Positions 9,417-30,960 of a DNA stretch of 64,000 nucleotides are shown piece after piece (within the stretch, counting starts at the first letter, position 1; each line of letters begins with the position of its first letter). Position numbers and translations under genes: made by a program. The notes below the pieces were generated by a model, which did no database searches, was not told the DNA's origin, and saw only the letters and a list, made by a program, of their open reading frames with translations. Source of the DNA: Limnohabitans sp. (GTDB taxonomy: Bacteria; Pseudomonadota; Gammaproteobacteria; Burkholderiales; Burkholderiaceae_C); the NCBI GenBank assembly GCA_046052765.1, contig JAVLFQ010000052.1. One strand, 5' to 3'.

Positions 9417-10019
9417 TCAACCCATCAACAAACCGTGTGTGCGTGCAAAGTGCAAGGTTTGTGTACGGCTTTTCACACCTAGGCGGCGGAACAGGCGCCA
9501 CAGGTGCACCTTGACGGTGTGCTCGCTGATGTTGAGCTCTGCGGCTATGTCTCGGTTGGATAAACCGCGGTCAAGCATGAGAATGAGTTGCTTTTGGCGC
9601 TTGGACAATTTGATGTCACCAATAACCACGGCATCCGCATCCACATCATCATCATCAGACTTCAAAATATCTTGGATGGCGGTTGATATTTCAGAGGTAT
9701 CGGTGGATTTCTCAATATACAGGTCGGCGCCGGCCTCCAGACAAGCGTCACGTGCTTCGCCAGATGGCATGGCAGACAACACGACCAACGGCACATCGGG
9801 ATACATTTTTTTCACATCGGAGATGGCTGTCGCACCTTTGACGCCAGGCAACAGCAAATCCAATACAAACAATTCGGGTTCACCATTTTTGATGAGTGCG
9901 GCTTGTAACTCGCTGAATTTTTCCAACTCCACCACCTTGGAGGCGGGGCGAAGTCTGCGCAGCAACATACCAATCATCTGGCGAACCATCGGGTGGTCAT
10001 CAATCACGTATAAGCTCAT
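9417..10019 (-). CDS. NarL/LuxR-family response regulator
   Basis: Receiver (IDDHP, DLLLPG, LSAM, IEK) plus C-terminal HTH LSKRQ...GLSNRDIAAELNISEHTVKVH. Confidence 0.92.
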   Translation of the reverse strand: MSLYVIDDHPMVRQMIGMLLRRLRPASKVVELEKFSELQAALIKNGEPELFVLDLLLPGVKGATAISDVKKMYPDVPLVVLSAMPSGEARDACLEAGADLYIEKSTDTSEISTAIQDILKSDDDDVDADAVVIGDIKLSKRQKQLILMLDRGLSNRDIAAELNISEHTVKVHLWRLFRRLGVKSRTQTLHFARTHGLLMG

Positions 10020-26630: not shown

Positions 26631-27569
26631 ATGTTCGATGCACTGGGTATGCGTTTGGGGCGTTTGTCGCCCTACACCTTAGGCATTTTGTTGGCCTTGT
26701 CTGGGGCGATTGCATTCAGCGGCAAAGCCATTATTGTCAAACTGTCTTACCGTTACGGCGTTGATGCCGTCACGGTCATCATGTACCGCATGTTGTTTGC
26801 CCTGCCGTTTTTTATCGCCATGACTTGGTGGGCTTCACAACAACCCCACGCACGAGCACATCCGTTGGACCGACGCGATCTGCTGGCGATTGCCGGTCTG
26901 GGTTTTTTGGGTTACTACTTGGCCAGCTTTCTGGATTTTCTGGGATTGCAAACCATCACAGCGAGCTTAGAGCGGTTGATCTTGTATTTGAACCCGACCT
27001 TGGTCATGTTGCTCAGTGCTTTGCTTTACCAACACCGCATACTCGCGCGACGAGCCTGGGCCATGGCCATCAGCTATGCCGGTGTGTTGGTGGTGTTCGG
27101 ACACGAGGTTAGCTTCAGCGGTAACGGCGTGGTGGTGGGTTCGGCCTTTGTCTTCACCAGTGCTTTGTCATACGCGCTGTATTTGATGTTCAGTGGCCAA
27201 ATGGTCAAACGCATAGGCGCATTGCGCTTGGTCGGCATGGCTTCCATCGTGGCCTGTGTCTGTTGTTTGCTGCAATTTGTCATACTCAGGCCTTGGTCGG
27301 CTGTGTGGGTGCAGCCGCAGGTGCTGACCTTGGCCTTGATGAATGCAACGGTTTGCACGGTAGCGCCTGTCGTGTGCATCATGATGGCGATAGAGCGTAT
27401 CGGCGCTGCGTTGACGTCGCAGGTTGGCATGGTGGGCCCCATATCCACCCTGACATTGGGTGTGTGGGTGTTGGGTGAGCCGGTCAACGGCTGGATTGGC
27501 ATGGGCACTTTGCTGGTGCTCGCTGGTGTGTATATGGCTTCGCAATCAGGAGAAAAAACATGGACTTAG
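26631..27569 (+). CDS. EamA/DMT-family transporter
   Basis: About 10 hydrophobic segments with an internal duplication; LERLILYL; VLGEP. Confidence 0.88.
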   Translation: MFDALGMRLGRLSPYTLGILLALSGAIAFSGKAIIVKLSYRYGVDAVTVIMYRMLFALPFFIAMTWWASQQPHARAHPLDRRDLLAIAGLGFLGYYLASFLDFLGLQTITASLERLILYLNPTLVMLLSALLYQHRILARRAWAMAISYAGVLVVFGHEVSFSGNGVVVGSAFVFTSALSYALYLMFSGQMVKRIGALRLVGMASIVACVCCLLQFVILRPWSAVWVQPQVLTLALMNATVCTVAPVVCIMMAIERIGAALTSQVGMVGPISTLTLGVWVLGEPVNGWIGMGTLLVLAGVYMASQSGEKTWT

Positions 27570-28354
27570 GCATCAAAGGTAAATGGGCGCTGGTGGGCGG
27601 CGCGAGCAAGGGTTTGGGCTGGGGGTGTGCCAGTGCGCTGGCGCAAGCTGGCGTCAATTTGGTGATGGTGTCGCGCGGCGCTGCTGTGTTGGAGGCTGCC
27701 GCAGCAGGGCTGCGTCAACACGGTGTGACGGTTTTGACGGTGGCTGAGGACATCACCTCCGAAGCTGGACGTGCAGCCATTTGGTCAGTGGCTGGGGGAC
27801 CAGCAAATAACTTTGATATCGTGGTGACCAACGCCGGTGGCCCGCCCAGCGGCGACTTTCGCGAATGGGACCGGGACGCTTGGATCAAGGCCGTGGATGC
27901 CAATATGCTGACCCCGATCGAACTGATGAAAGCCACCATTGATGGCATGGCAGCACGTGGCTTTGGGCGCATAGTCAACATCACCTCTAGTGCGGTCAAA
28001 GCACCCATCGATATTTTGGGTTTGTCCAATGGCGCGCGCAGCGGTCTGAGCGGATTCGTTGCCGGTTTGTCTCGCAACCCTTCTATTGCCAAGCACAATG
28101 TCACCATCAATAATTTGCTGCCAGGTGCGTTTGACACTGACAGGCTCAAAGGTATTTTGCAAACGACAGCCGAAAAAACCGGCAAGAGCGTGGAAGAGCT
28201 TGCGCAAGCACGCCGTGCCAGTGCCCCTGCCAACCGGTTTGGTACGCCTGAGGAGTTCGGTAACACCTGTGCATTTTTGTGCAGCCAGCATGCAGGTTTT
28301 ATCAATGGTCAAAACATATTGATCGACGGCGGTGCTTACCCGGGGGCTTACTAA
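27560..28354 (+). CDS. SDR-family oxidoreductase
   Basis: GASKGLG, TNAGG, TINNLLPG, LIDGG. Confidence 0.9.
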   Translation: MDLGIKGKWALVGGASKGLGWGCASALAQAGVNLVMVSRGAAVLEAAAAGLRQHGVTVLTVAEDITSEAGRAAIWSVAGGPANNFDIVVTNAGGPPSGDFREWDRDAWIKAVDANMLTPIELMKATIDGMAARGFGRIVNITSSAVKAPIDILGLSNGARSGLSGFVAGLSRNPSIAKHNVTINNLLPGAFDTDRLKGILQTTAEKTGKSVEELAQARRASAPANRFGTPEEFGNTCAFLCSQHAGFINGQNILIDGGAYPGAY

Positions 28355-28400: not shown

Positions 28401-30278
28401 CTAAGAGGCGTTGGCTGGTGTTAGGGTGGTCTGCGTTTGTTGTTGATACACATGCACAACCAATGCCTTTTGCAATTCTTTCAACTGCACCGGTTTAGCT
28501 ATGAACGCATTGATACCGGCAGAGACGGCGTTTTCGCGGGTTTCTTTGAACACATCAGCCGTCAATGCAATCACTGGAATCTGTGCTTTTTGACAAGCCA
28601 TCGACCTGATCGCTCGCGTAGCTGTCAAGCCGTCCATCACCGGCATGTGTATGTCCATCAGCACCACATCGAAATCCTGTTGATCCAGTGCTTGCAACGC
28701 CAGTTCGCCGTTTTCACAAAAGGTGGCGTGGTGGCCAAGCTGCTGCAATAGAAACGCCAAAAACTTTTGGTTAACCGGATGGTCTTCGGCGACCAATACA
28801 CGCAGTGTTTCATTCTCTTTGATGCCAATGACTTGCTCAGTTCCCGTGTCTTCAACGACAGGCGCAGGCATTGGCACCCATGGCATACGAAACGTGAAGC
28901 TAGACCCTTGTCCAGGCTGGCTTTGCACGTGTATGTCCCCGCCAAGTAATCGCGCCAGCGCCATGGAGATTTCCAATCCCAGGCCAATGCCCGAGGATTT
29001 GCGTGATAAACCTGAGTCAACTTGGTAGAAAAGTTGAAACAGTTTGCTCATGGAAGTTTTGTCTAAACCTATGCCCGTATCGCTGACGGTAAATTCAAAA
29101 AAACGCGCCTGTCCTTCGTCGCTTGAGTGGTGAAAGTGCAGGCTAACTTCACCTTGCTGCGTGAATTTGATGGCGTTGTTTAGCAGGTTAAGCAATATCT
29201 GGCGTAGCCGTGTGCCGTCAGATTTCACCCAGAACGCCTCATCAGGTAAGTTGTGTAACGAGATGGACAGGTTTTTTTGTACGGCCAGAGGCCGCATGAT
29301 GGCCTCGACATTCAGCATCAACGATGCCAAGTCAACCGCTTCGGTGTGTAAGCTCATCTTGCCTGACTCGAGCGCAGACATGTCAAGAATGTCATTGAGC
29401 AACTTCAGAAAATGATCAGCTGAATCGTTCACGGTGTGAACCAAGTCGATCTGTTCCTGGGTCAGCGGGGTTTTGGCTAAGACGCCCAACATACCAACGA
29501 TACCGTTAAAAGGGGTACGCAACTCATGGCTCATGTTGGCCAAGAACAGGCTTTTGCCGCGACTGGCTGACTCTGCATCTTGTTGTGCTTGACGCAGTTG
29601 CTCATTCAACGCAGTCAAGGCGGCTTTTTCTCTTTGCAGCGACCGATGACGGTACAACAGACCAGCGGCTGTTGCCATTAACACCACCAATTGCACCAGA
29701 GTCAACCAAGTGATTTGCTGGTTTTGTGACAGCAATTCTGCATTTTGCTGTTCCATTAAGAGGGAGGCAATTAAATCTGCTGAATTACCAAGGGTCCGGT
29801 TGTTCTTAAAGAAATTTTGCATGTCTGCCAGCAGCAAACGAAGTTCGGTGTTGCTACTGGGTTCTTGGTCTAATTCATGTTGTGCACGTTGCACATACGT
29901 TTGCATGATGTTGAAGGTTGCAACGTTTTCTGGGTTTTTAAACAAGTAGGCCGAGCCCGGTGCATCGCGCACGGTATCTACTTTGCTCGACAGTAAATCG
30001 AGCCGTGTTTGTAATTCAGCCTTGGACACAGGCTGGCGCGAATCTAAATGCAATTGCAGCGCATGTTGAAAGCGTTGGAATTCACTGTCCAATATAAAAG
30101 CAGGCGCGGACAGCGAGTCAATTTTGACCGCATTTTGTTCAAGCAAGGACTTGCGTTGCGCCAGTTCGAACACTAGCAACGCCGCCATGACCAAGGCAAT
30201 CACGGCGGTGACCAAGAACAGCCGGATACAGAAGGGAACAGACAGTTGACGTAACGACATTGATGTGCGGTTATTCAA
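28401..30278 (-). CDS. Membrane-bound hybrid sensor histidine kinase (periplasmic sensor-HisKA-HATPase-REC)
   Basis: Two TMs flank a roughly 150-aa periplasmic domain. H-box FLANMSHELRTP, N-box NLLNNAIKFT, DTGIG, GIGLGL; receiver AEDHP...LMDIHMPVMDG...AKP. Confidence 0.95.
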   Translation of the reverse strand: MNNRTSMSLRQLSVPFCIRLFLVTAVIALVMAALLVFELAQRKSLLEQNAVKIDSLSAPAFILDSEFQRFQHALQLHLDSRQPVSKAELQTRLDLLSSKVDTVRDAPGSAYLFKNPENVATFNIMQTYVQRAQHELDQEPSSNTELRLLLADMQNFFKNNRTLGNSADLIASLLMEQQNAELLSQNQQITWLTLVQLVVLMATAAGLLYRHRSLQREKAALTALNEQLRQAQQDAESASRGKSLFLANMSHELRTPFNGIVGMLGVLAKTPLTQEQIDLVHTVNDSADHFLKLLNDILDMSALESGKMSLHTEAVDLASLMLNVEAIMRPLAVQKNLSISLHNLPDEAFWVKSDGTRLRQILLNLLNNAIKFTQQGEVSLHFHHSSDEGQARFFEFTVSDTGIGLDKTSMSKLFQLFYQVDSGLSRKSSGIGLGLEISMALARLLGGDIHVQSQPGQGSSFTFRMPWVPMPAPVVEDTGTEQVIGIKENETLRVLVAEDHPVNQKFLAFLLQQLGHHATFCENGELALQALDQQDFDVVLMDIHMPVMDGLTATRAIRSMACQKAQIPVIALTADVFKETRENAVSAGINAFIAKPVQLKELQKALVVHVYQQQTQTTLTPANAS

Positions 30279-30795
30279 TGATTAAGGCTTTGAGTTGCCA
30301 AACCGAACGCTGGTAGTACCGCACGCTTTGCAATTCTTTTTTACTGTCATAGGGATACACCACAAACAAGGGGCCTTTGTTTTTCATGCTTATTTGTTCA
30401 CCATTTAAAGAGTGGGCCAAGATGACATCAAAATTCATCGCATCACTGAACGGCAGTGTGTCTTTGTAATCATCCAAGGCGATCGCAGTGATGCTGTGGC
30501 CTTTTACCTTGGCTGCATTCAAAATATCTCTTAGCAAAGGGCCTGTGAACGCGACAGCGCTTTGATGCCAAGGCGTGTGGGTGGTGAATGTGTGTGGTGG
30601 TAATTTTTTCAGACTCGCCATGTCAAACTCCATCACCAATGTGGGCGCTTGCGATTTGTCGGCGGCCTGCTGGAAAACTTGCAACACCTTGTCGGTGGGC
30701 TTGGGCTCTTTGGCCATTACTTTCGACGGCACGAGCACCGTCAGAGTAAAACAAATGCAAGCAAACACAGTCAGCCAATGTTTGATCGAGTTCAT
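30271..30795 (-). CDS. Periplasmic sulfite-oxidase-fold protein without Moco Cys (PruR-like, candidate pterin-binding protein)
   Basis: Signal peptide then TPW, FTGPLLRDIL, ALDDY, KGP..VVYP, VWQL; overlaps the kinase start by 8 bp. Confidence 0.8.
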   Translation of the reverse strand: MNSIKHWLTVFACICFTLTVLVPSKVMAKEPKPTDKVLQVFQQAADKSQAPTLVMEFDMASLKKLPPHTFTTHTPWHQSAVAFTGPLLRDILNAAKVKGHSITAIALDDYKDTLPFSDAMNFDVILAHSLNGEQISMKNKGPLFVVYPYDSKKELQSVRYYQRSVWQLKALIIE

Positions 30796-30819
30796 AGGAT
30801 GAATAAGCATTGAACGGTG

Positions 30820-30960
30820 AAGATTTATTTCAAAAATATATTTTATATACCAATAAATCAACTTTTAGTTTTAAATATGGCAAATTATTCAACTATATTA
30901 ATTATTCTAATTAAATAGAAAACAATACTATTTTGTTGAAACTTTACATATCTGACAGTT
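30820..30960. promoter_or_regulatory. Very AT-rich upstream region of the PruR-like/kinase operon
   Basis: About 140 bp almost devoid of G/C between the DMT stop and the periplasmic gene start. Confidence 0.55.

Follow-up and report, generated by a model that had tools for sequence, protein, structure and literature searches.

The subject of this work is a pair of adjoining genes on the minus strand of a 64,000-nucleotide stretch of DNA from Limnohabitans sp. (contig JAVLFQ010000052.1; the whole of this stretch is referred to here as the window), viz. a pruR-like gene coding for a small secreted protein and, directly downstream of it, the gene for a hybrid histidine kinase. These genes probably make up a PruR-DTB cassette of two genes, in which a PruR receptor is combined with a hybrid kinase that carries a DcpA-type sensor and signals through a His-Asp relay. 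The architecture of this cassette is already known and named, and the locus is a further example of a published class. PruR-DTB, consisting of PruR together with a periplasmic domain of the DcpA type that is fused to a TorS/BaeS-like histidine kinase, was defined bioinformatically in a PNAS paper of 2024, where it makes up 23-29% of about 5,600 PruR pairs and is dominant in Betaproteobacteria (PMC11194511), and it is restated in a 2026 review, with an example kinase from Ruegeria pomeroyi (PMC13259868). An earlier note on this DNA had presented the pair as a candidate for a poorly described system, a description which, as far as the architecture is concerned, has to be given up in view of these publications, and nothing at this locus overturns current understanding. 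What is new here, modestly, is that a large Comamonadaceae clade is without the sensor Trp that has been called "invariant", and that a sub-clade of it also has Asp in place of Asn102 of the receptor.

The receptor and its partner kinase

The features of the two genes are listed below.

30271..30795 (-): pruR-like gene; 174-amino acid (aa) secreted protein of the sulfite oxidase (SUOX) fold, predicted to bind pterin (PF00174, PDB and Foldseek matches)
28401..30278 (-): hybrid histidine kinase; 625 aa if translation begins with the TTG at 30278 and 619 aa if it begins with the ATG at 30260 (matches to HisKA, HATPase_c and Response_reg of Pfam)
30168-30233 (-): first transmembrane segment (TM1); kinase residues 16-37
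29712..30167 (-): DcpA-type periplasmic sensor domain; residues 38-189, a predicted helical bundle (model, profile matches)
30081..30107 (-): A58-X7-E66, the counterpart of the WX7E motif (alignment of 98 partner sensors and whole-library profile search)
29643-29711 (-): second transmembrane segment (TM2); residues ~190-209
29361..29555 (-): HisKA domain, the dimerization and histidine phosphotransfer (DHp) domain; residues 242-306, with the phospho-accepting H251
28881..29219 (-): HATPase_c catalytic domain; residues 354-466, with N, G1 and G2 boxes intact
28461..28799 (-): C-terminal receiver domain (Response_reg); residues 494-606, with D542, T573 and K595

The open reading frame (ORF) of the pruR-like gene spans 30271-30861(-), and translation from the ATG at 30795 gives a protein of 174 aa, which matches the lengths of its homologues (173-180 aa); a second in-frame ATG, 15 nt upstream, gives the 179 aa seen in the database protein P0001. 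The earlier note had described this product as a signal-peptide protein with a set of characteristic motifs and a mature region free of cysteine, and this description is borne out in full. The motifs TPW (T74-P75-W76), GPLLRDIL, ALDDY (D108, Y110), KNKGPLFVVYP (K138) and VWQL (W166) are all present. The signal peptide, as read from the sequence, comprises residues 1-28 (K5/H6, a hydrophobic core at 7-22 and predicted cleavage after VMA28, with K29 next), and the only two cysteines of the protein, C13 and C15, lie inside it.

If the small protein were a catalytic member of the sulfite oxidase/MsrP enzymes, which bind the molybdenum cofactor (Moco), then its adjacency to the kinase would be incidental. 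The one Pfam family in which it is placed is the general PF00174 (Oxidored_molyb; 41.5 bits, cut-off 24) and there are weak NCBIfam matches to SorA and SoxC, as this explanation would lead one to expect. However, the explanation is effectively refuted by a number of other results. The mature protein of 146 aa has no Cys, and the Moco-Cys position is occupied by W76, within a Pro-Trp motif. A sequence search of all PDB chains (phmmer, E<=1) returned five PruR entries, described as "pterin binding protein", and nothing else, catalytic enzymes being absent from the matches; the E-values are 1.3e-31 for 7kos (Agrobacterium tumefaciens) and 1.4e-29 for 7rkb (Klebsiella pneumoniae). When an AlphaFold model of the protein (built on 14 homologues, pLDDT 73) was compared with solved structures by Foldseek, the top 7 matches were PruR structures throughout, with 7kos, 7rkb, 7kou, 7kom and 7kp2 at E-values of 2e-12 to 2e-10 and TM(target) of 0.73-0.78, whereas sulfite oxidases (~1e-6) and YedY (~1e-4) followed 5-8 orders of magnitude behind, in matches covering 22-39% of the target. 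Further, the genome contains a separate PF00174 ORF of 350 aa (contig C16, 108.9 bits), which is probably a true MsrP-type enzyme, and the gene order of pruR and kinase is conserved across the phylum. The earlier note's placement of the protein with PruR and not with MsrP and the sulfite oxidases is thus upheld by both the structural and the PDB searches, and sequence and model together support the view that it is a member of the PruR family and not a catalytic Moco enzyme. The two residues that stack on the pterin are retained, Y110 and W166 corresponding in the alignment to Y104 and W160 of 7kos. The protein is predicted to be exported to the periplasm, where its truncated SUOX fold would hold a free pterin between Tyr110 and Trp166.

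In the kinase, H251, the N, G1 and G2 boxes, D542, T573 and K595 are all intact. No Pfam Hpt domain is found in it, and it is in this respect not an unorthodox kinase of the TorS type, which ends in a histidine phosphotransfer (HPt) domain. Its best NCBIfam models correspond to the cytoplasmic parts of TorS, BarA, LuxQ and ArcB and each of them scores below its cut-off; the TorS model TIGR02956 gives 365.5 bits over the kinase-receiver part, under the cut-off set for the full length, and the LuxQ model 318 bits. A coiled coil joins the sensor straight to the DHp, catalytic and receiver domains, with neither HAMP nor PAS between them. The overlap of 8 bp between the two genes, which the earlier note had reported, is valid for the TTG start at 30278 only. 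If the ATG at 30260, located 18 nt downstream, is taken instead, as it is in the database protein P0121 (619 aa, 99% identical), the kinase gene follows pruR after a 10-nt spacer. Among relatives the spacing ranges from -8 to +19 nt, and the two genes are tightly coupled under either start.

The pairing of the two genes is far beyond chance, because a kinase of 610-650 aa with an H-box lies directly downstream of the PruR gene in ~70 of the 80 related (Comamonadaceae) loci. Of 400 Pseudomonadota genomes sampled evenly, 43 contain a PruR homologue. Thirty PruR loci were fetched from this survey, one of them the window's own, and in the other 29 the downstream gene codes for an H-box kinase in 22 cases and for a GGDEF protein in 5. 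The kinases of some of these relatives differ at their C-terminal ends: those of L053, L057 and L065 (777-785 aa) and L081 (1014 aa) have, as judged by eye, an HPt-like extension beyond the receiver, and the last of these, from Pseudomonas, has two receivers and keeps the Trp of WX7E. From these sequences, HPt would appear to be fused to the kinase in some lineages and separate from it in others. At two further loci, L077 and L082 (Iodobacter and Janthinobacterium), what comes after the PruR homologue is an ORF resembling 8-amino-7-oxononanoate synthase (BioF-like) and not a sensor protein; these PruRs may have their partner elsewhere, or they may be orphans.

The relationship of the sensor to the periplasmic domain of DcpA was examined in several ways. 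The earlier note's account of a kinase with two transmembrane segments and with DSEFQRF and RLDLLSSK in its periplasmic part agrees with what is found, as both segments are located in the stretch between TM1 and TM2, the first of them holding E66 and the second R92; the sole Trp within residues 1-215 is W191, at the TM2 boundary. An AlphaFold model of the N-terminal 215 residues (pLDDT 83) has an all-helical periplasmic domain of ~150 aa between the two segments. Foldseek matches of this model are weak (E>=0.13), the top ones being periplasmic sensor domains of the four-helix-bundle type, and some of these are under the control of a partner protein (QseE with QseG, LytS-N with XylFII). No solved structure related to the sensor was detected by sequence profile at E<=0.5, and a word-indexed homologue search with the sensor region returned 23 matches, to close relatives only. 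Partner sensors were also collected from the 80 genome loci and from the even sample of 400 genomes, and the window sensor aligns with them at DS..[W/A]-x7-E and at R-[LF]-D-[IL]-[LF]-x-S, with E66, D94, S98 and other conserved columns maintained over 35 diverse partners. In the test of homology, five sensors, taken from GGDEF-linked partners of PruR homologues, served in place of A. tumefaciens DcpA. A hidden Markov model of these five sensors, run against the genome to which the window belongs (11,600 ORFs), gave a single match, viz. the window kinase (E=3.2e-7). In hhalign comparisons, the profile of the clade's sensors matched the GGDEF-linked profile with 97.3% probability over 188 columns and that of Trp-containing kinase sensors with 99.6%. 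These profile comparisons indicate that the kinase sensor is homologous to the DcpA-type periplasmic domains. Taken with the PruR matches and the intact kinase and receiver, this bears out the earlier note's suggestion that the same receptor pair is wired here to a His-Asp relay.

The proposed relay and the supply of pterin

The PruR-DcpA mechanism has been published for A. tumefaciens (PMC11194511). By homology with it, pterin-loaded PruR would dock on the periplasmic bundle of the window kinase and shift the balance between its kinase and phosphatase activities. The ligand would probably, again by homology, be a reduced pterin of the monapterin or neopterin type, coming either from a PruA/FolM-like reductase encoded on contig C67 or by uptake from the surroundings. 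Gene content suggests that phosphate would pass from H251 to D542 and, because the kinase is without an HPt of its own, next to a stand-alone HPt encoded on contig C65. This HPt would probably be shared with three other hybrid kinases that likewise lack one, forming a funnel like that of LuxQ and LuxU, and the relay would end at a response regulator among the orphans of the genome, candidates for which include the following gene.

9417-10019 (-): response regulator of the NarL/LuxR type, an orphan of 200 aa; immediately downstream of trpS and beside cytochrome c maturation genes, with no kinase within 3 kb

The simplest wiring, as inferred from gene content, is thus one in which four hybrid kinases feed one HPt and this in turn one or more orphan regulators.

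The earlier note had stated that no HPt or response regulator lies alongside the pair, and this is correct: the neighbours of the cassette are a generic short-chain dehydrogenase/reductase (SDR) and a drug/metabolite transporter (DMT) of the EamA type, and the nearest gene with a receiver (REC) domain is the orphan NarL-type regulator, ~18 kb away. The note had also proposed that HPt proteins and a PruA-like pteridine reductase be looked for elsewhere in the genome, and candidates for both are present in the assembly, which has 90 contigs totalling 2.6 Mb and a completeness rating of 100%. The genome's single Hpt match is a stand-alone ORF at C65:136282-136659 (-), of about 115-125 aa and with the motif HTLKG, which lies between smc and dapD and has weak similarity to LuxU and to the HPt of BarA. 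An iterative search within the genome brought up 20 REC ORFs along with 16 kinase cores. Hybrid kinases number four, all of them lacking HPt, viz. the window kinase and three with multi-spanning membrane sensors. Among the genome's 16 response regulators there are four orphans, with no kinase inside 3 kb: the NarL-type one at 9417-10019 of the window and those at C33:39946-40584, C88:8097-8810 and C31:17533-18474. The other three hybrid kinases (587-630 aa) are encoded by a tandem, overlapping pair at C51:30346-33880 (-) and at C22:38211-40103 (-), and none of them has an HPt or an adjacent regulator. A 313-aa ORF at C31:17533-18474 (-) combines an H-box/DHp-like segment with a receiver and is without an ATPase domain; it may be a phosphotransfer protein or a protein of the pseudokinase type. 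With one HPt, four hybrid kinases and few orphan regulators, the downstream pathway is tractable.

In regard to pterin supply, the PruA/FolM-like SDR at C67:28115-28963 (-) scores 289.7 bits with the model NF006597, above its cut-off, and carries, as TGAGKRLG, the TGX3RXG motif known from reductases of the FolM/PTR1 type; after NF006597 it fits best with pteridine reductase and dihydromonapterin reductase. A 124-aa FolB/FolX-like ORF follows it immediately, the pair spanning C67:27739-28963 (-). From these sequences it is plausible that a reduced pterin of the monapterin or neopterin type is made by a PruA-like route. The SDR next to the cassette (27560-28354) was also considered as a PruA-like pteridine reductase and was rejected, as it matches only generic SDR/FabG-type NCBIfam models, below their cut-offs, and is without the TGX3RXG motif. 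In the syntenic relatives (plus L056) this SDR is again a neighbour of the cassette, and congeners that have no cassette carry it in the same place.

In comparison with the known systems, the locus resembles the PruR-DTB class in its tight operon with pruR preceding the kinase, in the secreted PruR without the Moco Cys, in the two-TM kinase with a helical periplasmic domain of ~150 aa (about 138-150 aa being expected) in which the Glu of the motif is kept, in the HisKA-HATPase and receiver make-up of the cytoplasmic part, and in its betaproteobacterial host, where this type dominates (PMC11194511). However, it differs from this class in that the Trp of WX7E is replaced by Ala, Asn102 by Asp and the Arg of R.KGP by Lys, in the lack of a PAS domain and in the absence of an adjacent response regulator, as regulators are frequently proximal in PruR-DTB (PMC11194511). 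With PruR-DcpA of A. tumefaciens (Atu3496-Atu3495, with PruA; PMC4488946, PMC11194511) it shares a homologous receptor (E=1e-31) and sensor, the operon layout and a PruA/FolM-like reductase in the genome, whereas the output is a His-Asp phosphorelay here and GGDEF-EAL turnover of cyclic di-GMP there, and this sensor lacks Trp40 and this receptor has Asp at N102. The system further resembles LuxP-LuxQ-LuxU of Vibrio (and also TorT-TorS), in that a periplasmic binding partner controls a two-TM hybrid kinase, and it shares with the Vibrio system a kinase without its own HPt and, probably, a single small HPt serving several hybrid kinases. However, the binding protein here has the SUOX fold and LuxP that of a type-I periplasmic binding protein, the sensor here is a helical bundle and that of LuxQ a tandem PAS, and TorS has an HPt of its own, which the window kinase does not have.

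A number of points weigh against the interpretation of the locus as a PruR-DTB cassette that works in the manner proposed above. In the literature, N102, Y104 and W160 are called conserved residues of the PruR pterin site, W40 and E48 of DcpA (forming WX7E) are called the two invariant positions of the sensor, and the LN102AA mutant of A. tumefaciens PruR has lost function (PMC11194511). In the window PruR the position of the pterin-hydrogen-bonding Asn102 is Asp108, and in the window sensor the Trp position of WX7E is Ala58. REC ORFs occur near the pruR-kinase pair in 8 of the 80 relatives' loci with no fixed position, on which ground a cassette-linked response regulator or HPt in relatives was dismissed. 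The HPt has been assigned to the relay solely as the only one detected in an assembly of 90 contigs, and the PruA-like assignment of the C67 SDR comes from family scores and a motif, not from orthology to Atu1130. Lastly, a literature search found no experimental report on any PruR-DTB kinase. As this type makes up about a quarter of PruR-linked regulators and a bench study was found for none of them, each annotated example helps in choosing a model.

Clade-wide changes in sensor and receptor

The earlier note had pointed to Asp for Asn, Lys for Arg (K138 in the R.KGP motif) and the missing sensor Trp as deviations of this particular copy. These deviations are real, but they are characteristics of a clade and are not specific to this copy. 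The Trp position of WX7E is occupied by A, S or T in all 67 of the aligned partners from the Comamonadaceae clade, and Trp is present in 27 of the 28 aligned partners from the even sample of the phylum. The Glu of the motif, which is E66 in the window kinase, is invariant in the partner alignment (A2). An exhaustive profile search with the sensor against 1.8 billion cluster representatives gave 1,301 matches at E<=1e-3, and among the top 150 representatives the Glu is present in ~136; at the Trp position, Ala occurs in ~60, Trp in 44 and some other small residue in ~20. In the receptor, Asp at the N102 position is common to a clade of 34 PruR loci, and 59 of the remaining 60 classified PruRs have Asn. 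In the PruR tree, the window falls inside this Asp clade (support 99/95), which is nested in a clade with support of 100/100 together with a clade of 33 Asn/Ala members and two Asn/Trp members. If the two changes had occurred as a coupled pair, then the Ala-type sensors should accompany Asp-type PruRs; this was ruled out, as Ala-type sensor partners are already found with 32 PruRs of the Asn type. On this distribution of residues, the loss of the sensor Trp was the earlier event and the change from Asn to Asp in PruR the later one.

The same substitutions could be taken to mean that the Asp108/Ala58 clade has diverged in function, with recognition of another pterin species or redox state or of a non-pterin heterocycle, or with a different manner of docking, so that its pairs are insulated from those of the Asn type. 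This interpretation we consider unlikely, and there are observations on both sides of it. The Asp-type PruRs form one well-supported clade, the two main sub-clades of the larger clade in which it is nested have Trp-less sensors, and the change from Arg to Lys at R.KGP goes together with that from Asn to Asp. In addition, the metagenome-assembled genome (MAG) CAMBFN01 (Comamonadaceae) contains two pairs, L064 of the Asn type and L018 of the Asp type; their presence together is as expected of specialised paralogues and hints, from the sequences, that they are such. The loss of function in the A. tumefaciens mutant noted above also shows that N102 matters in that organism (PMC11194511). However, both stacking residues, the Pro-Trp motif and the PruR fold are kept, and the loss of the Trp predates the change from Asn to Asp. 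Further, the replacement of Asn by Asp is conservative for a hydrogen-bonding partner of pterins, carboxylates being known to bind the 2-amino/N3 edge of pterins in sites of the dihydrofolate reductase (DHFR) type. The shifted ligand at which the earlier note had hinted is not supported by any of the tests made here, and the proposal of a PruR-DTB cassette is retained as the preferred one.

A broader form of the divergence argument, to which we likewise attach a low probability, is that the Trp-less/Asp108 lineage, which is common among the planktonic Comamonadaceae of fresh waters (Limnohabitans, Rhodoferax), constitutes a distinct pterin-sensing branch, one that would respond to another pterin or redox state and would feed a single HPt funnel along with three membrane-embedded hybrid kinases. 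If this were true, then pterins possibly released by phytoplankton or neighbouring cells would be read by a distinct branch, and pterin sensing would be a community or environmental cue, integrated like a quorum-sensing input, and not a private biofilm switch. For the PruR-DTB class in general, the significance of the substitutions is of a different kind. Across a large natural clade the Trp of WX7E is dispensable and the Glu is not, which narrows what the interface of receptor and sensor can depend on. Censuses of these systems based on the motif may undercount them, due to the existence of Trp-less sensors, and the natural split between Asn and Asp, with the two types coexisting in one genome, provides a natural experiment on the specificity of the pterin site.

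The cassette as a genomic unit

The relatives of the window are MAGs of freshwater Comamonadaceae labelled Limnohabitans or Rhodoferax. PruR is present in 13 of the 81 sampled species genomes of the genus (6 of the 36 of high quality), as a single copy per genome and at most 66% identical to the window PruR. In eight PruR-less congeners (L116-L123), the 3' ends of the SDR and DMT transporter genes lie within the fetched stretch in seven; these convergent ends are 8-40 bp apart in six of them, and in L123 there is a gap of 444 bp. Because the two genes mostly abut where the cassette is missing, the 2.6-kb cassette (28401-30960) is polymorphic, being either present or absent at a fixed site. Upstream of pruR the cassette includes one further feature.

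30796..30960 (-): very AT-rich leader; 165 bp with a GC content of 0.21 (window 0.54), between pruR and the DMT transporter gene that ends upstream of it

This leader is presumed to be the promoter or regulatory region of the cassette; a sigma-70 consensus scan of its minus strand gave no convincing site, and promoter and terminator scans gave nothing above the shuffled expectation.

If the cassette were a decaying or silent accessory island, evolving fast and no longer signalling, then a patchy distribution, a low GC content and the lack of a dedicated regulator would be expected. The occurrence in few species of the genus, with the empty site intact in congeners, is in line with this, as are the GC content of the cassette (0.47-0.49 against ~0.55 in the flanks) and the low identity of the PruRs within the genus, set against 89-97% for the syntenic neighbours; in the closest relative, where the neighbours have this same range of identity, the mature PruR is 71% and the sensor 70% identical. 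However, such decay is very improbable, since neither reading frame is broken, the catalytic and ligand-stacking residues have all been retained and the conserved sensor columns referred to above have been maintained among diverse partners. The divergence, moreover, is spread across both proteins, with neither frameshifts nor stops.

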